64,000 nucleotides of DNA from Escherichia phage ES12 (MN508614.1), one strand, 5' to 3'; counted from the first letter of the stretch, positions 4,963-63,313 are shown. Program-made: numbers and translations. Notes: generated by a model not told the origin, from the sequence alone.

Positions 4963-4978
4963 AGGGGCCGAAGCCCCT
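4963..4978 (-). terminator. GC hairpin with UUCG loop on minus strand, after the 4984..5577 gene
   Basis: aggggccgaagcccct perfect inverted repeat directly after the stop codon. Confidence 0.5.
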
Positions 4979-5577: not shown

Positions 5578-5621
5578 AACATTTCCTTTAGTTAATTAAG
5601 GGTTTTATAATCCGTGGGAGT

Positions 5622-5651
5622 ATTATACTCTACTCCCAAGAGTTTGTAAAC
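5622..5651 (-). promoter_or_regulatory. T4-type early promoter (-35 GTTTAC, 18-nt spacer, -10 TATAAT) within a stem-loop (PeSL-like)
   Basis: Minus strand reads GTTTAC-aaactcttgggagtagag-TATAAT; inverted repeat gggagta/tactccc brackets the -10. Confidence 0.55.
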
Positions 5652-5984
5652 TTATTCTTCGTCCAATTCATCAATAAATTTATCGATACTATTATTAATA
5701 GACTCATCGATGATTAACAAAGCATCATCATCCATAATATTAATATTTTCTAAAGCATCAATATAAGCTTGATTGACTATAGACCATGCCCTTTGAAAAT
5801 ATGGGACTTCATCATCAGGACTGAACCAACGTACACCTTCAAAGATACGTTTGGCATAATCTAACACCCATTGTACAGGCATGTTTTGAGAACGTTCGTT
5901 AAACTCTTTAAAGTCCTTAGATTCAAAAAGCTCTTCAGGATAATAATTTCTATTACAAAAATCTTTACTAAAGTTACGTTTCAT
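5652..5984 (-). CDS. Hypothetical protein with acidic C-terminus
   Basis: 110-aa ORF preceded by early promoter. Confidence 0.6.
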   Translation of the reverse strand: MKRNFSKDFCNRNYYPEELFESKDFKEFNERSQNMPVQWVLDYAKRIFEGVRWFSPDDEVPYFQRAWSIVNQAYIDALENINIMDDDALLIIDESINNSIDKFIDELDEE

Positions 5985-6010
5985 AATGTTCTCCTCAAAG
6001 TTATAGGCTC

Positions 6011-6040
6011 ATAATATCTCAATCATGAGCCTGTGTAAAC
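6011..6040 (-). promoter_or_regulatory. T4-type early promoter within stem-loop (PeSL-like)
   Basis: Minus strand GTTTAC-18 nt-TATTAT; inverted repeat aggctcat/atgagcct. Confidence 0.55.
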
Positions 6041-6316
6041 TTATTTCATATTATTGAAATATTCTTCTGCGATTTCGTCGTTATCATGGTAAACTTTAGA
6101 AGACAGTTTAACATAACCTTCAGCAGTGAACATGTTAATCACAACCTTTACAGTATACCACTGACCGTCTTCATTACCCATTACTGCATAAGTTTCAAAC
6201 ATCGGATGGTCAGGACCGATAACTTTAATATCATTCACCGTACGACCAAAATCTTCTGAAACACATTTCATAAAGAAGTTGAACAGTTCACCGTAATTAT
6301 CCATTTCATTCTCCAA
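6041..6316 (-). CDS. Hypothetical protein
   Basis: 91-aa ORF preceded by early promoter. Confidence 0.6.
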   Translation of the reverse strand: MENEMDNYGELFNFFMKCVSEDFGRTVNDIKVIGPDHPMFETYAVMGNEDGQWYTVKVVINMFTAEGYVKLSSKVYHDNDEIAEEYFNNMK

Positions 6317-6347
6317 GTTGTTTTCTATATCAGTAGTTGATAGTTGT

Positions 6348-6377
6348 ATAGTACCATAGAAGAACAGTCTTGTAAAC
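6348..6377 (-). promoter_or_regulatory. T4-type early promoter
   Basis: Minus strand GTTTAC-18 nt-TACTAT, preceded by TTTCACAAAACT upstream element shared with other copies. Confidence 0.55.
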
Positions 6378-6514
6378 AGTTTTGTGAAAAAATTTTTAAA
6401 AAGTTTTGGGGAATTCTAGGGCAGGGAGTGGAAATCAAAGGATAGGATAATATATTATAAAGGATAGAAACTAAATGATGCCTAGAGAGGCCCGGAAAGG
6501 CCTAGATACCAAAA

Positions 6515-6538
6515 AGCCCCGACCAAAAGGTTGGGGCT
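6515..6538 (-). terminator. Rho-independent terminator (minus strand)
   Basis: agccccaacc-uuuu-ggucggggcu hairpin followed by UUUUUGG on the minus strand, just after the stop at 6546. Confidence 0.6.
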
Positions 6539-7065: not shown

Positions 7066-7071
7066 CCAAAA

Positions 7072-7095
7072 AGCCCCAACCTTTCGGTCGGGGCT
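7072..7095 (-). terminator. Rho-independent terminator (minus strand); inverted copy of the 6515..6538 hairpin
   Basis: agccccgacc-gaaa-gguuggggcu followed by UUUUUGG on minus strand. Confidence 0.6.
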
Positions 7096-7768: not shown

Positions 7769-7844
7769 TGGTCGAGGCAGTAGGGATCGAACCTACGACC
7801 TAGGACTTAGAAGGTCCTTGCTCTTCCTTCTGAGCTATGCCTCG
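7769..7844 (-). tRNA. tRNA-Arg (anticodon UCU)
   Basis: Hand-folded cloverleaf: acceptor CGAGGCA/UGCCUCG, anticodon loop CUUCUAA, T-loop GGTTCGATCC, CCA encoded. Confidence 0.85.
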
Positions 7845-7848
7845 GATT

Positions 7849-7923
7849 TGGCGGACGTGATAGGATTCGAACCTATAACCAATCGCTTAACAGGCGATCG
7901 CTCTGCCATTGAGCTACACATCC
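7849..7923 (-). tRNA. tRNA-Asn (anticodon GUU)
   Basis: Acceptor GGATGTG/CACGTCC, anticodon stem ATCGC/GCGAT, loop CTGTTAA, T-loop TTCGAAT, discriminator G, CCA encoded. Confidence 0.8.
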
Positions 7924-7927
7924 AAAT

Positions 7928-8014
7928 TGGTGGGGAGTGATGGAGTCGAACCACCCGAGTCGCAATGACAATGGATTTACAGTCCACACCGCTACCTCTA
8001 CGGGATAACTCCCC
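7928..8014 (-). tRNA. tRNA-Tyr (anticodon GUA), long variable arm
   Basis: Acceptor GGGGAGT/ACTCCCC, anticodon loop CTGTAAA, 15-nt variable arm, T-loop TTCGACT, CCA encoded. Confidence 0.8.
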
Positions 8015-8023
8015 AAATTAATT

Positions 8024-8098
8024 TGGTGGCCCTGGGTGGAATTGAACCACCATCTGGCGATTATGAGTCGCTTGCTTGAACCTTCCAGCTACAGGGCC
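8024..8098 (-). tRNA. tRNA with CAU anticodon (Ile2 or Met; Ile expected by analogy with T4)
   Basis: Acceptor GGCCCTG/CAGGGCC, anticodon loop CTCATAA, T-loop TTCAATT, CCA encoded. Confidence 0.75.
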
Positions 8099-8099
8099 T

Positions 8100-8175
8100 T
8101 GGTGCTGATTGACGGAATCGAACCGCCGACCTTCTCATTACAAGTGAGTTGCTCTACCTACTGAGCTAAATCAGC
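8100..8175 (-). tRNA. tRNA-Thr (anticodon UGU)
   Basis: Acceptor GCTGATT/AATCAGC, D-arm GCTCAGTAGGTAGAGC, anticodon loop CTTGTAA, T-loop TTCGATT, CCA encoded. Confidence 0.85.
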
Positions 8176-8180
8176 AAAAC

Positions 8181-8270
8181 TGGCGGAGGCGATAGGATTT
8201 GAACCTATGAGTCGCCGGAGCGACTGCCGGTTTTCAAGACCGGTGCATTAAACCACTCTGCCACGCCTCC
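8181..8270 (-). tRNA. tRNA-Ser (anticodon UGA), type II
   Basis: Acceptor GGAGGCG/CGCCTCC, anticodon stem CCGGT/ACCGG, loop CTTGAAA, long variable arm, CCA encoded. Confidence 0.85.
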
Positions 8271-8272
8271 AG

Positions 8273-8346
8273 TCTCCATACAAGGATTTGAACCTTGGAC
8301 CTCCTGATCCCAAATCAGGCGCTCTACCAAACTGAGCTACACGGAG
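8273..8346 (-). tRNA. tRNA-Pro (anticodon UGG), CCA not encoded
   Basis: Acceptor CTCCGTG/TATGGAG (two G-U pairs), anticodon loop TTTGGGA, T-loop TTCAAAT; 3' end followed by CTG not CCA. Confidence 0.8.
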
Positions 8347-8356
8347 TAAATTAAAT

Positions 8357-8430
<74 letters not shown>

Positions 8431-8435
8431 AAATT

Positions 8436-8522
8436 TGGTGCGAGAAGTGGGACTCGAACCCACAAGGAAATCATTCCGCAGCATTTTAAGTGCTGTGCCT
8501 TTACCAATTTGACCATTCTCGC
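8436..8522 (-). tRNA. tRNA-Leu (anticodon UAA), type II
   Basis: Acceptor GCGAGAA/TTCTCGC, anticodon stem CAGCA/TGCTG, loop CTTAAAA, long variable arm, T-loop TTCGAGT, CCA encoded. Confidence 0.85.
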
Positions 8523-10632: not shown

Positions 10633-10654
10633 TTTATTCTCCTCAGTAGTAGAT

Positions 10655-10692
10655 AGGGTAATAGTATCACTACCCTATCTAAAAGTAAACTT
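10655..10692 (-). promoter_or_regulatory. PeSL-like early promoter plus stem-loop module
   Basis: Minus strand GTTTAC-18 nt-TACTAT; inverted repeat gatagggta/taccctatc around conserved core aatagtatcac. Confidence 0.55.
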
Positions 10693-10924
10693 ATTTTTTA
10701 CGAAAAATTGATTTATTTTCTGCTGCCCATTTTTCAATAACTGCAGCAGGACCAGTAACAACAATTTTATCACCGTAATCTTCTGCGGCGAGTTGACCGA
10801 AATTATCTAATGCATCACGAAGAACTCCATGAGGCATTTCACCCATTTTATCTTTCTTGCCAGTGTAAATAAACTCAACTTTTACATCAGCAGTTTCAGC
10901 AATAAATTCTTGGTAAGTTTTCAT
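10691..10924 (-). CDS. Small internal-protein-like protein with exact CTS MKTYQEFIAE
   Basis: Start set at Met5 of the ORF-track ORF (GGAAA RBS); 77 aa; N-terminus MKTYQEFIAETADVK. Confidence 0.65.
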   Translation of the reverse strand: MKTYQEFIAETADVKVEFIYTGKKDKMGEMPHGVLRDALDNFGQLAAEDYGDKIVVTGPAAVIEKWAAENKSIFRKK

Positions 10925-10952
10925 TTTGATTTCCATTTGGTTTTGTTTTGAT

Positions 10953-10990
10953 AGGGTAATAGTATCACAACTAAAACCCTATGTAAACAA
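10953..10990 (-). promoter_or_regulatory. PeSL-like early promoter plus stem-loop module
   Basis: Minus strand GTTTAC-18 nt-TACTAT with inverted repeat atagggt/accctat; core aatagtatcac. Confidence 0.55.
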
Positions 10991-11000
10991 CTTTGTGAAA

Positions 11001-11258
11001 TTATTTTAAATCTTCTAATCGTTTCTTCATCTTAGAACCGTTCTTAGCGATTTCGCCTGCATCAGAGCATAATGCTAAAAGCGCTTTAACTTTAGTTTGG
11101 TCTCCTTTAAAAGATGAAGGATCAACAGCAGCAGCAAGTTCTTTAATACGAGAGAAAAGACGCTCAGCTTCAGCTAAAGCCATTCCAAGCTTTACTTCCA
11201 TACCATGAGAAGATTCAGTAATAGTAGTTTTTGTAGCAAACTCTTTGAAAGTTTTCAT
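11001..11258 (-). CDS. Small protein with CTS-like N-terminus MKTFKEFATK (I-T-E site at residues 13-15)
   Basis: 85-aa ORF, AGGAAA RBS, own early promoter. Confidence 0.55.
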   Translation of the reverse strand: MKTFKEFATKTTITESSHGMEVKLGMALAEAERLFSRIKELAAAVDPSSFKGDQTKVKALLALCSDAGEIAKNGSKMKKRLEDLK

Positions 11259-11282
11259 TTTTATTTTCCTAATTAATTTTGA

Positions 11283-11320
11283 TGAGGTAATAGTATCACT
11301 ACCTCATCAGTATGTAAACA
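11283..11320 (-). promoter_or_regulatory. PeSL-like early promoter plus stem-loop module
   Basis: Minus strand GTTTAC-18 nt-TACTAT; inverted repeat gatgaggta/tacctcatc; core aatagtatcac. Confidence 0.55.
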
Positions 11321-26707: not shown

Positions 26708-27366
26708 TGAGTTTACTTAATAATAAAGCGGGAGTTATTTCCCGCTTAGCAGATTTTCTTGGTTTTAGAACTAAGAAAAATGATATTTCGGTTATGAATA
26801 ATCAGCCAGTAGGCGCTGTAACAATTTCACAAATAGCAAAAGGTTTTTATGACCCGAATGTAGAATCTGCTATCAATGATGTTAGAAATATGGCAGAGCA
26901 ACAGGTTGGAGCTGTATTAGTTAATATAAGCGGCGTATCTCCTACTGGCGTGCAACAAACAGACTATTGGTCATTTGAAGGAACCGTTACTGATACTTCA
27001 GCCAAACCAGGTGATCCAGTTATTGTTAACATGTTTGGTATTCCAGTTAAAGCTACTAATGGAATGACTTCAATCGAATTCACTAGTGCCGTTAGAATAG
27101 CTCTACAGGAAATGGTTGTAAAATTTATTGCAATTGATTCGTTTGAAGACCATCCTACCATAGGAAATAAAATACAAGTTAAGTATTTAGATAACCAAGA
27201 ACATATCTTAGAACAATACTCTGATAAAGGAATTACTTTCAAACAGGAAATAATTTCTCCTTCTAAACCTGGGTACGGAACGTGGCAATTATTAGGTGCG
27301 CAAACTGTCACGCTAGATAGTCACACACAACCTACAGTATTTTATTATTTTGAGAGAATAGCATGA
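26707..27366 (+). CDS. 11: gp11 baseplate wedge protein (short tail fiber connector)
   Basis: ATG at 26707 overlaps gene 10 stop (TAATG) and gives 219 aa; ORF-track start at 26689 lies inside gene 10. Confidence 0.9.
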
Positions 27367-46263: not shown

Positions 46264-46279
46264 AGGGGCCGAAGCCCCT
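46264..46279 (-). terminator. GC hairpin with UUCG loop downstream of hoc (minus strand)
   Basis: aggggccgaagcccct, identical to the hairpin at 4963..4978. Confidence 0.5.
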
Positions 46280-59134: not shown

Positions 59135-59165
59135 TTTGTGTTCCTCATGTTATGTCAGTAAGACT

Positions 59166-59195
59166 ACTATAACACAACACGAGGGACTTGTAAAC
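59166..59195 (-). promoter_or_regulatory. T4-type early promoter (GTTTAC, 18-nt spacer, TATAGT)
   Basis: -35 overlaps the stop codon of the upstream Alt paralog. Confidence 0.5.
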
Positions 59196-61252
59196 TACAT
59201 CTTGAACTTTTTAGACATTCCGTTGATGTTAACCAAAGAAGCTAAGATTTGAGAAACTTCATTTTCCTCTTCTTTTGATTCTTCTACAAGGAATTGATTA
59301 AATCCAGCCATTGGACGAACTTCACCAGTTTCCATTAGATGGTCTCCATCATATACTGATTCTTCTAATTGTTCAGAAGGAGGAACGATTGTACCTTCGA
59401 TTAGATACTTGTTATAAGCAGTTTCTTTCATAAAGTACGTACTTACTTTATTAATCTTCAGTAAAATTCCACGTGGTAGAATAACTTCAGCTTCTGATGG
59501 AAATCCTGATAAATGACCTGGAACGATAACTTTGATTCGCTCAGCTCCTTTAATTACCATACCCACGCTAGTTTCAGCATCTTCATTAGCATATGTAGAA
59601 TGACTACCCATATGCATCAAATCTTCTGCATCAACGGAACCTTCTCCTTCGCCAGAAAATACTGCGCCAGAATCATCTAGAGCCATATAGTTTTTACCAT
59701 GCTCACCGAAGATATTTGGTTTAAGCGATGTGGATACGAAGTTCTTGAAATAGAACATTTTGTTTTCAATGTTATGACGCAAAGTTTTAAAGGTAACTTC
59801 TTGTCCACGATAAAGCGTAGTTCCTGGAGGAAGAACTGAACCTTTAGCGAATGCAGAATCCAACGTCTCGATGTGCTTAATAGCTCGTTCCATATATTCT
59901 TCACGGGTAGAATCTGGTTTACCCAAAAGGAACGAGTTCATTTCAACATATGAATCTGCACAATAATCTTCAATTACATCAGACTCAGCCTGAGTTAATC
60001 CTTTTGGAGTTACTTCGGTGCTTGCGTATTCATATGCCTGAGCAGCAGATTCATTAATCAATTTATAAATGCCATTCATGACAAATTGAATAATAGCTAC
60101 CTTTTCGTCTGGTGTGGCTTTAGAACCTTTAACCAAATCATTGATAATTTTCTTAATAACATCAAAGCTATTAGAAATATTAATATCAGCGAGATCGCTT
60201 AAAATTTTATCAGTCTTATAATCAAAGAATTCTTTATTCTTTAAATATTCTTGAGAACCTTGATATGTTATATCGCTCTGTAACTTGATAGATGGATCAC
60301 GTAAACGTGCATGGGCTAATGCAATATGATTTCGGAAGCTTTCGAGTTCATAATCACTAGATTTAAAACGAGAAGCGCTTCTCATACCGCCTATAGCTCC
60401 TTTGCTGAAGTTTGAACCAATTTGAATAACGCCAGAGTTCATTGGTCCTTCTGCTTTATACACCGGAACTTTAGATTCAAACTCTTGATATTTCTTAGCA
60501 GCGAAGCTATCACCCTGAAGTGAAGCATCAACAGTAGAATATTGAGCTTGTGCTGCTAATCGACGACTAATTTTAGTTTTCTGAATAACAGCTTGGTCCG
60601 TGCGCTTATCATTTTCTAAAGCAATAGAAGCAGCAACAGCAACAGCTTTAGGAACAGCATTTCCTGTTTTAACGTCTACATAAACATCACCGACCTTTGA
60701 TTCAACTTTTGTGAATAACTCAGTTGAAATAGGAGGTACACCTGTAATGTCTTCTAAATTGGCATTTTTACGGTAAACCATAATATATGCATATTTCTTA
60801 TCATAGTCCCAGATTTCCTTTAAAAGAACATATCGACCTGCTCCTTTAGTACGTACTAAACGGTCAGCAATAACTTGCATTTGACGAGCTGCGCCATTTG
60901 TTTTACTTTTTATTACGCGGAATAGGCATGCGTCGATTTTATACTGTTTCATTGTTTGAAGAGCAGTATCAAAAACGGCATTAATGACACCAATTGGATT
61001 TCCACCCAAGTTTTTAAGCTTAACTAATGATAGTTTCTCATTAACACCTATCATTACGATATGCATCATTTTATCGCCTGGCTTAACGTTTTTATTCGTA
61101 TCACCACCAGAGGTATATGTACAAAATCTAAATCCAGGAAGCACGCTTTCTTCGCCGGCTTGAATAGCAAAAATTTGTGGTATTTTATGCTTAGGATTTA
61201 AGTTAACAACCGGCGCCGAAGCGCCGTCAAATAATTCTGTAATAAGTTCCAT
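59195..61252 (-). CDS. Alt-like ADP-ribosyltransferase, divergent tandem paralog
   Basis: 685 aa; N-terminus MELITELFD shared with Alt; ART motifs present (LYRGQ, FVSTSL, EAEVILPRG); central region diverged. Confidence 0.85.
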   Translation of the reverse strand: MELITELFDGASAPVVNLNPKHKIPQIFAIQAGEESVLPGFRFCTYTSGGDTNKNVKPGDKMMHIVMIGVNEKLSLVKLKNLGGNPIGVINAVFDTALQTMKQYKIDACLFRVIKSKTNGAARQMQVIADRLVRTKGAGRYVLLKEIWDYDKKYAYIMVYRKNANLEDITGVPPISTELFTKVESKVGDVYVDVKTGNAVPKAVAVAASIALENDKRTDQAVIQKTKISRRLAAQAQYSTVDASLQGDSFAAKKYQEFESKVPVYKAEGPMNSGVIQIGSNFSKGAIGGMRSASRFKSSDYELESFRNHIALAHARLRDPSIKLQSDITYQGSQEYLKNKEFFDYKTDKILSDLADINISNSFDVIKKIINDLVKGSKATPDEKVAIIQFVMNGIYKLINESAAQAYEYASTEVTPKGLTQAESDVIEDYCADSYVEMNSFLLGKPDSTREEYMERAIKHIETLDSAFAKGSVLPPGTTLYRGQEVTFKTLRHNIENKMFYFKNFVSTSLKPNIFGEHGKNYMALDDSGAVFSGEGEGSVDAEDLMHMGSHSTYANEDAETSVGMVIKGAERIKVIVPGHLSGFPSEAEVILPRGILLKINKVSTYFMKETAYNKYLIEGTIVPPSEQLEESVYDGDHLMETGEVRPMAGFNQFLVEESKEEENEVSQILASLVNINGMSKKFKM

Positions 61253-61255
61253 GAT

Positions 61256-63313
61256 TTATCCTTGAACGAACTTGTAAGGCATGTTTGCAATATCTATACA
61301 AGACGCAATAATTCCAAGAGATGATTCTACTTTCTGTTTAACGTTTGATGAAACAAATGATGCAAAGTCAACTCTGTCTTCTATTTCAATATCACCTGTC
61401 ATTGCAACTACTTCGCCGGTTTCCATTAGACGGTCACCGTCATAAATTACCGATTCGGTGAGTTCTTCTGTGGTCATAACTTCAGCTTGAATAAGCTTGT
61501 TGTTAGTTTTAACTGTTCCATCATTGTAAGATGCATCGGTTATTTTATTAACTTTGACCATTAATCCACGTGGCAAAATGACTTCCATTTCATTTGAAGG
61601 TGCTAAACTTCCACCTGGTAAAACAACATTGACTTTATCAGCCCCAGTAATAACCCATCCAATTCCAACTAAATTATCGCTAGAATTTACTAGTCCTTCA
61701 TCAGTTTTATCAATAGAAACACTTAAACGCTTTTCGTCTGGTAAAACACCCACAGATGAATCAGTCATCCAGGTACCAAAAATGTTTGGATATAATGATG
61801 TTGACACAAAATTTCTAAAATAAAAAACTCGATTTTTTACCAGTGCTTCATATATTGAAGGTAACATTCGTTGTGAACGATACAAAGTAATACCTTTTGG
61901 TAATCGTTCACCATTTTTAAAGGCAGAATCTAAATTATCAATAGCTTTTTCTATATCAGATGCTGTCAAAATACTTGTACGCTCATCTGGATTATATAAT
62001 CCCAAAAGAGCGTTATTTATGTCTACATATCCTGAACTTACGTATTCACGAATTCCACGTTTTTGTGCCGGTGTGTATTTAGATGAATCTTTATTTTCGA
62101 CTATAGGATGTAGTGACCATCCAGCGGTAAGAGCATATCCACGCAATTCTCTTCGAATAATCTTTGTTTTTATTGCATTCCAAGAATTTTGTACTAACTC
62201 ATTCGCAGCATCTTGATTTAAATGCGAATGCTTGTTAATGTTTCTTTCTAACCAAGCACCTTTATATTTTTCTAAAGTATCATCAACTATAGAAGCAATA
62301 GTTTCTAAAGTTTTTATTGAAGTAATAGATTCTTTTCGTAATCTTTCTAAAGCTTTATTTTTTATTTCTGCATTAACATCAGATTCTTTATCTTCAGGAA
62401 TTATAGAAGCTTCTCTGAATGCCATTCCAGCTGTAACACTACTAAGAGCATTCTCTAATGCAAATCCTGAAGTAGAAATAACAGTTAATTCATTAGCGTC
62501 AGAAATTAAAGGAGCGTCAGCAGGTTTATTTAATTCTGCTGCTGAAGCCTCAAATTTTTGAAACATCGGCGTTTCAAATCTAGAAGATTCCAATGATTGA
62601 CTTTGCGCAATTGCTCTACGGGAAATTTTAACTTTAACGATTACAGCTTGGTCAGAACGTTTATCATTTTCTTGCGCAATAGATGCTGCAATTGCCTCAT
62701 TTTTAGTTACTTGAGCTCCAGTATCTTTATTGATATAAACATCACCGACCTTCGATTCAACTTTAGTAAAGAGCTCAGTACTAATTTCCGGAACTCCCGG
62801 AATGTCTTCTAGTGATACATTTTTGCGATGTATAAGAATATATGCATACTTTTTATCGTAATCCCAGAGTTCCTTAAGAAGGACGTATCTGCCACCTGAA
62901 CGACTACGGATAAGTCTATCAGCAATAACTTGAATTTGTCGAGCTTGACCAGCGGTTTTAGACTTAAGAATACGAAGCATACAGGCATCAATTTTATACT
63001 GACGCATTGTTTGCATCGCAACAGTAAAAACTGAATTGATATAATTAATTGGGCTTGGACCAAGACCTTTTAATTTAGCAATTGAACCTTTAGCAGTTAA
63101 TGTAAAAGGAACAATATGCATCATTTTATCGCCCATCTTTAAATCGCGATTAGTATCACCTCCAGATGTATAGGTACATAAACGAAAGCCTGGTTGTTCA
63201 ATTGCATCATCAACATGAACTGAAAAAATTTGCGGTATTTTCTTCTTTGGATTTAAGTTTGTAATCGGAAGAGTAGTATCTTCGTCAAATAATTCTGTAA
63301 TAAGTTCCATCAT
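61256..63313 (-). CDS. alt: Alt ADP-ribosyltransferase (head-packaged)
   Basis: 685 aa; MMELITELFDEDTTLPITNL; ART motifs LYRSQ, FVSTSL, EMEVILPRG. Confidence 0.93.
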   Translation of the reverse strand: MMELITELFDEDTTLPITNLNPKKKIPQIFSVHVDDAIEQPGFRLCTYTSGGDTNRDLKMGDKMMHIVPFTLTAKGSIAKLKGLGPSPINYINSVFTVAMQTMRQYKIDACMLRILKSKTAGQARQIQVIADRLIRSRSGGRYVLLKELWDYDKKYAYILIHRKNVSLEDIPGVPEISTELFTKVESKVGDVYINKDTGAQVTKNEAIAASIAQENDKRSDQAVIVKVKISRRAIAQSQSLESSRFETPMFQKFEASAAELNKPADAPLISDANELTVISTSGFALENALSSVTAGMAFREASIIPEDKESDVNAEIKNKALERLRKESITSIKTLETIASIVDDTLEKYKGAWLERNINKHSHLNQDAANELVQNSWNAIKTKIIRRELRGYALTAGWSLHPIVENKDSSKYTPAQKRGIREYVSSGYVDINNALLGLYNPDERTSILTASDIEKAIDNLDSAFKNGERLPKGITLYRSQRMLPSIYEALVKNRVFYFRNFVSTSLYPNIFGTWMTDSSVGVLPDEKRLSVSIDKTDEGLVNSSDNLVGIGWVITGADKVNVVLPGGSLAPSNEMEVILPRGLMVKVNKITDASYNDGTVKTNNKLIQAEVMTTEELTESVIYDGDRLMETGEVVAMTGDIEIEDRVDFASFVSSNVKQKVESSLGIIASCIDIANMPYKFVQG

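Follow-up and report, generated by a model that had tools for sequence, protein, structure and literature searches.

Judged by their sequence and by orthology with T4, eight sites in the 64-kb window (by which we mean the whole stretch of DNA that was analysed) are T4-type early promoters (Pe). Taken as a whole, the arrangement is probably explained by seven of these eight promoters carrying a hairpin of the promoter-early stem-loop (PeSL) type, which would form in read-through RNA at the 3' boundary of the upstream gene, and by the cassettes that contain them acting as recombination points.

Promoter sequence and genomic setting

The window is a 100% match to Escherichia phage ES26 (MN508618.1), a Tequatrovirus whose record is unannotated and whose coordinates, minus 63, give the positions used here. 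Eight exact matches to GTTTAC-N18-TAnnnT are found in it, all on the minus strand (2129, 5622, 6011, 6348, 10661, 10959, 11290 and 59166), compared with 0.88 on average in dinucleotide shuffles, where the maximum is 4 and none of 100 reaches eight. A sequence-only reading of the same DNA had already described minus-strand promoters of this form, and its motif and orientation hold; it had nevertheless missed the site at 2129 and placed three others 6-7 nt away, at 10655, 10953 and 11283 instead of their true starts at 10661, 10959 and 11290, the numbers given lying close to the predicted transcription starts. The same reading had described the 18-nt spacer as invariant. When spacers of 13 to 23 nt are compared in the window, enrichment is indeed seen at 18 only, and T4 itself has 39 motif matches at this spacer, every one of which lies on the minus strand (the plus strand has none), as against 0-4 at any other spacer. 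There is nothing special about this spacing, though: with GTTTAC, the -35 of T4 early promoters is taken one base too far to the left relative to the TTGACA register, the real form being TTTACW-N17-TAnnnT, and the distance is thus the canonical 17-bp spacer of σ70 promoters. The published consensus for the PeSLs of PST/T4 is TTTACW-N17-TAYWAT (PMC4122927), to which all eight sites conform in the -35 and six of the eight conform exactly in the -10. A generic σ70 scan parsed six sites as TTTACA-17-TAxxxT, the two TTTACT sites at 2129 and 10661 not being among the matches listed.

A position weight matrix derived from 32 intergenic T4 sites returns exactly the same eight sites, with scores of 16-53 bits, and nothing else on either strand of the 64 kb; the 99.99th percentile of scores in the window is 0.9 bits and the top score, 53 bits, belongs to site 6348. 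T4 early promoters are described as having the order UP/-35/TGn/-10 (PMC2988021). The TGn of the extended -10 is present in six of the eight sites, being missing at 5622 and 6011, and the T4-derived profile includes an A-rich block upstream. Every site lies directly upstream of an early ORF on the same strand, which is preceded by a Shine-Dalgarno sequence and has its ATG 22-44 nt after the -10. The sites therefore agree with T4-type early promoters in -35, spacer, -10, TGn/UP region and orientation. In addition, the T4 GenBank record names an “early promoter Pe133295” that lies 7 nt downstream of the -10 of the T4 motif site 133331, which links the motif with a promoter already catalogued and shows where the start is to be expected. 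The host σ70 RNA polymerase would thus be expected to read an A/T-rich upstream region, (G)TTTACW, the 17-bp spacer, TGn in six of eight cases and TAnnnT, and to start about 7 nt after the -10.

When compared with annotated relatives and with T4, the first 13 kb of the window (1-13 kb) correspond to the early block of T4, which lies entirely on the minus strand and whose order in T4 is ipIII, e, nudE, e.2-e.8, the tRNA cluster, trna.4, ipI, 57B, 57A and gene 1. For six of the eight sites, an orthologous motif site occupies the same junction in T4 (between e.8, e.7, e.6, trna.4, ipI, 57B, ipIII and alt.-3), and the internal-protein loci ipI and ipIII together hold four of the eight window sites. 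The relationship of the phage to T4, these orthologous junctions and the consensus fit (PMC4122927) bear out the earlier suggestion that the sites match the promoter-early stem-loop modules of T4-type phages. The -35 was also said to abut the stop codon of the upstream gene in every case, which is strictly true of four sites: the gap is 0 nt at 5622, 6011 and 10661, and at 59166 there is a 1-nt overlap, the G of GTTTAC being the last base of the alt stop codon TAG. Elsewhere the gap amounts to 4 nt (2129), 12 nt (10959 and 11290) or 168 nt (6348). From a practical point of view, the eight sites define the early transcription units of this region, for which the ES26 record carries no annotation.

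Inverted repeats around the -10 box

Folding 50 nt of RNA starting at the -35 yields a hairpin across the -10 in seven of the eight sites, with free energies of -12.8 to -18.5 kcal/mol and z scores of -3.0 to -4.95, site 6348 being the exception. The perfect Watson-Crick repeats that bracket the -10 measure 11 bp at 10661, 10 bp at 11290 and 8 bp at both 5622 and 6011, and they are shorter at 10959 (7 bp), 59166 (6 bp), 2129 (5 bp) and 6348 (3 bp). Hence, the repeats of 7-9 bp previously proposed for most of these promoters do reach at least 7 bp in five of eight, with the range being in fact 3-11 bp and 6348 lacking the hairpin. In all eight cases a stem-loop is found in or adjacent to the promoter, seven lying over the -10 and the eighth promoter having a separate hairpin upstream.

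All the elements described in this and the next paragraph lie on the minus strand. The cassette 5' of the e.6 homologue (5611-5651) has its -35, GTTTAC at 5646-5651, against the TAA of the e.7 homologue and its -10, TATAAT, at 5622-5627; the hairpin (5611-5641) has the core TGGGAGTA/TACTCCCA and a fold of -14.0 kcal/mol (z -3.8), with a predicted start at about 5615. This cassette equals the T4 7215 cassette except in the stem, which reads GGGAGTA/TACTCCC against GGGACCA/TGGTCCC in T4, the changes being compensatory. The cassette 5' of the e.7 homologue (6005-6040), in which the -35 (6035-6040) directly adjoins the e.8 homologue's TAA and the -10 is TATTAT at 6011-6016, carries the hairpin AGGCTCAT/ATGAGCCT at 6005-6032 (-15.7 kcal/mol, z -4.3). 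The early promoter 5' of the e.8 homologue (6348-6377) consists of a -35 at 6372-6377, TGn and the -10 TACTAT at 6348-6353; no hairpin forms over its -10 (z of the RNA fold +0.58), and the site is a member of a repeated T4 cassette with the conserved leader ACAACTATCAACTACTGATA. Upstream of it, a classic terminator-like hairpin with a T-run, AGCCCCAACC-TTTT-GGTCGGGGCT-TTTTT, occupies 6511-6538, just past the stop codon of the upstream ORF and 133 nt upstream of the -35 of the 6348 promoter.

Between the homologue of the lysozyme gene e and an internal-protein gene, a cassette at 2110-2158 has its -35 at 2153-2158, TGn and the -10 TAGTAT at 2129-2134, with a hairpin at 2110-2150 (-16.7 kcal/mol, z -3.4) whose outer stem CUCCU/GGAGG pairs the downstream Shine-Dalgarno sequence. 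The cassette 5' of the trna.4 homologue (10650-10690) comprises a -35 at 10685-10690 that abuts a TAA, TGn, the -10 TACTAT at 10661-10666 and the hairpin AGATAGGGTA/TACCCTATCT at 10650-10681 (-18.5 kcal/mol, z -3.7); its downstream leader contains GGAGAATAAAA, a perfect fit to the RegB consensus GGAGRAYARAA (PMC3014915). The cassette at 10945-10988 precedes a second internal-protein-like ORF (10691-10936) and has its -35 at 10983-10988, TGn, its -10 at 10959-10964 and the hairpin ATAGGGT/ACCCTAT at 10951-10982 (-16.5 kcal/mol, z -4.4). Between the 57B homologue and an ipI-like ORF lies the cassette at 11280-11319, identical to T4 73939, with its -35 at 11314-11319, TGn, its -10 at 11290-11295 and the hairpin GATGAGGTA/TACCTCATC at 11280-11309 (-17.4 kcal/mol, z -4.95). 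Finally, the cassette between alt and the alt.-3 homologue (59146-59195), in which the alt stop codon TAG shares its G with GTTTAC, has the -10 TATAGT at 59166-59171 and a long, imperfect hairpin at 59146-59181 that takes in the downstream Shine-Dalgarno sequence; the fold amounts to -12.8 kcal/mol (z -3.0) over 50 nt and to -22.0 kcal/mol when the Shine-Dalgarno sequence is included, and T4 123093 and 136336 are paralogues of this cassette. A search of Rfam returned tRNAs only, at 7772-8522, and no match at the hairpins.

The repeats are far more frequent at these promoters than elsewhere. Repeats of at least 7 bp occur in five of the eight window sites as against 4.7% of random positions (P about 1e-5, a value that, like the other P-values given here, overstates independence, many sites being paralogues or orthologues). 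In T4 they bracket the -10 in 10 of 39 sites, with random positions at about 4-5%, and when the windows are shifted by 40-60 nt, 0-2 such repeats are found. A position-free scan from -40 to +90 returned 25 repeats of at least 7 bp, 16 of which have their loop centres at +12 to +32, with a sharp mode exactly at the edge between TGn and the -10. The arms occupy low-information positions of the T4 promoter profile (at most 0.5 bit in the spacer and at most 0.7 bit after the -10); that is, they consist of the spacer and the initial transcribed bases, and the loop contains the informative TGn and -10.

The pairing is also kept where the sequence varies. In relatives, the stem at 6011 reads ACAGGCTCAT/ATGAGCCTGT (G8, IME339), ATAGGCTCAT/ATGAGCCTAT (T4, KMB23) or ATGGGCTCAT/ATGAGCCCAT (NC-G), a covariation that preserves pairing as ACAGG..CCTGT, ATAGG..CCTAT and ATGGG..CCCAT. 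When ten distinct cassettes, pre-selected for at least six inner pairs, are stacked in one register, 88% of the cells are paired, as against 37-54% when the partner is slid by 1-3 columns, and 11 of the 12 pairs change on both sides; this covariation is based on about a dozen phages plus paralogues. It is in the light of these data that one should consider whether the inverted repeats arose by chance, or were inherited without selection through duplication of a single ancestral cassette. Several cassettes are clearly paralogous, as that explanation would have it; however, the stems differ in sequence and yet pair in one register, and their enrichment over random and shifted windows is strong, which makes this origin extremely improbable.

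Read-through RNA and the 3' end of the upstream transcript

Because the predicted start is located within the 3' arm or at its end, the hairpin can be expected only in RNA that reads through from the upstream gene. That RNA begun at the local promoter cannot form it follows directly from this geometry, insofar as the starts are correctly predicted. The preliminary observation that the sense strand folds better than the antisense strand at 28 of 32 sites, by 4.2 kcal/mol, was dropped, because random windows selected for sense stability display the same bias. When selection is made strand-symmetric, by requiring a Watson-Crick repeat of at least 6 bp, the sense strand still folds 2.55 kcal/mol better than the antisense strand, compared with 0.89 kcal/mol in random repeat-bearing windows (P = 0.002), which provides modest support for selection acting on RNA.

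One function that such a hairpin might have is to mask the downstream ribosome-binding site in read-through RNA, so that translation would proceed only from the transcript of the gene's own promoter. At 2129 and 59166 the hairpin would additionally pair the downstream Shine-Dalgarno sequence, whose unpaired probability falls from 0.65 in local RNA to 0.13 in read-through RNA at the former and from 0.43 to 0.22 at the latter, and clear cases exist in T4 at 62797 (regB), 53943 and 136336. Against this, the Shine-Dalgarno sequence is equally open in both kinds of RNA at 5622, 6011, 10661 and 11290, and across 38 sites read-through accessibility is 0.41, compared with 0.46 when the upstream part is shuffled (P = 0.10), five of the 38 being individually significant. 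Masking was on these grounds rejected as a general purpose, and it seems distinctly unlikely to be the reason why the hairpins exist.

Termination was the other role to be considered, given that the sequence-only reading had suggested that the hairpin could terminate or process read-through transcripts. The part of this suggestion that places the action on read-through RNA fits the predicted start-site geometry, whereas “terminate” is the weak part. Intrinsic terminators are recognized by a G+C-rich stem followed by a U-run, and the seven stems do not have this form: none of the seven hairpins is followed by a T-run, none was called in a terminator scan, and the ARNOLD annotation in OE5505 and G8 marks other hairpins and none of these. 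In view of the missing U-runs and the absent predictor calls, the reading as classic intrinsic terminators was rejected. Terminators of the classic kind are present elsewhere in the window (7068-7095, 6511-6538 and 4963-4978), and their appearance is different.

The distribution of classic terminators in T4 gave the most informative result as to what the hairpins may do. Nine T4 early promoters that lie in long intergenic gaps are preceded by a textbook terminator, for instance GGGAGCCTTCGGGCTCCC followed by TTTTTT, and six of these nine have no hairpin over the -10. With layout classes compiled by hand from annotation tables, and with a strong fold defined as an MFE of -11 kcal/mol or lower over the promoter segment, which need not enclose the -10 (at least one T4 case, 13186, does not), such a fold is present in 18 of 22 T4 promoters without an upstream terminator and in 3 of 9 with one (Fisher P = 0.015). 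The window follows the same pattern, since its sole hairpin-less promoter, 6348, is also the sole one with an upstream terminator-like hairpin and T-run (6511-6538). We read these as two layouts of one module: a split layout, in which stop codon, terminator, UP element and promoter follow one another, and a compact layout, represented by seven of the eight cassettes, in which the stop codon lies at, or close beside, the -35 and the -10 is enclosed by the hairpin. With the stop codon at the -35 there is no space for a separate terminator. In a compact cassette, the inverted repeat would take only unconstrained bases, namely those of the spacer and the first transcribed ones, leaving TGn and the -10 in the loop; this packing argument is an explanation of the geometry and not a proof of function.

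The complementarity between hairpin and terminator in T4 indicates that, as far as can be judged from DNA sequence, the hairpin is most likely a part of the upstream transcript's 3' end and serves it. There it would mark, in read-through RNA, the 3' boundary of the upstream cistron, and it would work both as a weak attenuator or pause site and as an obstacle to 3' exonucleases after cleavage by RegB or RNase E in the downstream leader. A stronger version would have the hairpins act as efficient terminators, each small early gene being essentially monocistronic, in line with a literal reading of the PeSL as a “promoter-terminator”. The stem-loop of an RB49 PeSL reduced lacZ expression about as much as rrnB T1 (PMC2839356), and the distribution complementary to classic terminators in T4 would also be accounted for. 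Nevertheless, besides the lack of a T-run after all seven hairpins and the silence of both the terminator scan and ARNOLD, the stems are A/T-rich and weaker than the polyG/polyC stems of RB49 (PMC2839356), and purified polymerase on T4 DNA reads through to delayed-early RNA unless Rho is added (PMC2988021). Strong termination is unlikely because T4 depends on early transcripts being extended and purified polymerase reads through unless Rho is added (PMC2988021), and we consider this version doubtful. No T4 transcript-end maps (dRNA-seq, Term-seq or Cappable-seq) were found in the literature searched.

A more far-reaching idea, which we put forward as speculative and on balance unlikely, is that placing the -10 in the loop does more than save space and amounts to a general insulation device, the fate of an RNA being set by which promoter made it. 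If this were true, a boundary hairpin would be present in read-through RNA, where it would stabilise the upstream cistron and pause the polymerase, and local RNA would be made without it; in a subset of cases the hairpin in read-through RNA would also mask the next ribosome-binding site; each of the small early genes would become a portable, self-contained expression unit; and hairpin and classic terminator could functionally replace each other, as is suggested by their mutually exclusive distribution in T4. More remotely, structure at these repeats might contribute to shutting off the early promoters, a process that is still unexplained.

Possible gene exchange at the cassettes and comparison with known systems

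An 861-nt query matches 4385 places in 763 records, which corresponds to about 6-9 places per Tequatrovirus genome and reflects the repetition of the cassettes. In ten phages, the e.6-e.8 slot contains 0, 1 or 2 ORFs that are unrelated and of differing length, and the repeated element thus lies, as PeSLs do, in hyperplastic regions beside variable ORFs. All 14 homology breakpoints with respect to ES26 fall in or beside two cassettes (5599-5652 and 5980-6041), and in SHFML-26 a clean deletion joins window position 5632 to 5992, inside both cassettes, though breakpoints in intergenic DNA are expected anyway. To judge by this comparison, the pattern agrees with PeSL-mediated exchange, with the same proviso that intergenic breakpoints are to some extent expected: the repeated cassettes, of roughly 50-100 bp, would be sites where recombination swaps, inserts or deletes small early genes.

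The clustering of breakpoints at the cassettes raises the question of whether the inverted repeats act as DNA, by extruding cruciforms or forming hairpins in single strands and in this way favouring recombination (mini-circles, deletions) or influencing promoter opening, with the RNA hairpin as a mere by-product. Each of the two DNA strands is able to fold, and the crossovers of RB49 mini-circles lie in the stem-loop (PMC2839356). However, when folded as single-strand DNA the hairpins attain no more than -6 to -8 kcal/mol, with loops of 8-12 nt, so that extrusion from duplex DNA should be unfavourable; the sense-strand bias toward G·U pairs points to RNA; and the intergenic breakpoints would be expected in any case. 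An action at the level of DNA therefore appears improbable, and a hairpin acting in read-through RNA remains the preferred reading.

When compared with T4 early promoters as reviewed by Hinton (2010, PMC2988021), the window sites share the UP element, -35, TGn and -10, as well as the counter-clockwise (minus) orientation and the location upstream of early genes; no promoter part differs, and the inverted repeat is not discussed in that review. With intrinsic terminators, the hairpins have in common a stable stem right after a gene, but they lack the U-run.

In T4, the ribosome-binding sites of e, soc, 49 and I-TevI are sequestered when the RNA comes from read-through and become accessible in transcripts that start at a promoter located inside the hairpin. 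The likeness resides in this promoter inside a hairpin and in the two transcript forms, the window cassettes at 2129 and 59166 pairing their Shine-Dalgarno sequences likewise. In contrast, the T4 genes use late or middle promoters for temporal control, whereas both window transcripts are early, and most window hairpins leave the Shine-Dalgarno sequence untouched. Another similar case of a sequestered ribosome-binding site, mobE of Aeh1, is cited in PMC3014915.

The closest parallels are the PeSL cassettes themselves, defined in RB49/phi1 (Arbiol et al. [quoted passage not shown] They differ in having a near-perfect TTGACA-N17-TATAAT and polyG/polyC stems, as opposed to the GTTTAC -35 and the varied, A/T-richer stems of the window. 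Terminator and mini-circle activity were tested in RB49/phi1 only, and the T-even elements are regarded by the authors as analogues, not homologues, of PeSLs (PMC2839356). Analogous repeated early-promoter elements in the internal-protein loci of T-even phages were described by Repoila et al. (1994), as summarised in PMC2839356, and the PeSLs of PST/T4 were catalogued by Comeau et al. (2014, PMC4122927). The latter share with the window the phage group, the consensus, the loci and the association with gene swaps; however, according to the legend of Fig. 3 in that work (PMC4122927), the position of the stem-loops is “just upstream” of the promoter. That corresponds to the split layout, represented in the window only by 6348 with 6511-6538, whereas the other seven cassettes have the -10 in the loop, an arrangement better documented for RB49/phi1 than for T-even phages. 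The cassettes are thus a correct re-discovery of an element that is already known, described in T-even phages in 1994 and as PeSLs in 2010-2014, and the modest refinement offered here is an apparent alternation between compact cassettes, which have the -10 in the loop and lack a U-run, and split terminator-promoter cassettes, which suggests that both kinds do the same job at the upstream transcript's 3' end.

Hairpins and the leader of the hairpin-less promoters

Three hairpins of the classic terminator type lie on the minus strand of the window: those at 7068-7095 and 6511-6538, each with a G+C-rich stem followed by a T-run, and one with a UUCG tetraloop between e.6 and e.5 (4963-4978), the 16-mer of which recurs identically at 46264-46279. 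In contrast to these, the promoter hairpins are A/T-richer and lack a U-run. In the hairpin-less promoter family, an initial transcribed sequence, ACAACTATCAACTACTGATAC, is conserved immediately 3' of TACTAT; this leader occupies 6320-6347 (minus strand) in the window and has T4 paralogues at 27080, 55384, 70696, 163673 and 167086. For the shorter motif AACTACTGA, T4 has eight minus-strand occurrences and a single plus-strand one. A cluster of 8-9 tRNA genes lies at 7772-8522, also on the minus strand; Rfam gives eight tRNA hits and one weak tRNA-Sec-like hit (7932-8014), which is probably a long-arm tRNA.

Variable gene content

The interval between the e.6 and e.8 homologues (window 5578-6040) is a small hyperplastic slot. 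When compared with loci L014-L021 of T4-like relatives, it holds zero, one or two unrelated small ORFs, with lengths across ten T4-like phages of 0, 165, 177, 336, 399, 519 and 336+165 nt. At 10691-11258, ES26, the phage of the window, encodes two small internal-protein-like ORFs (81 and 85 aa) that have separate promoter cassettes, whereas T4 has a single gene, ipI, at the same position. ES26 also lacks both alt.-1 and alt.-2, the partial duplicates found in T4 between alt and alt.-3. At 59195-59197, the G of the alt stop codon TAG is also the G of the next promoter's -35 GTTTAC.

Degraded cassettes in relatives

Upstream of e.6, RB3 (locus L017, 762-785) carries a degraded cassette in which GTTTAC is kept but TATAAT is shifted out of register by a shortened spacer. 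The cassette upstream of e.6 in HY03 (locus L020) is also degraded, with no motif match there. Both resemble the “half PeSLs” (promoter-early stem-loops) described for the T-even phage PST.
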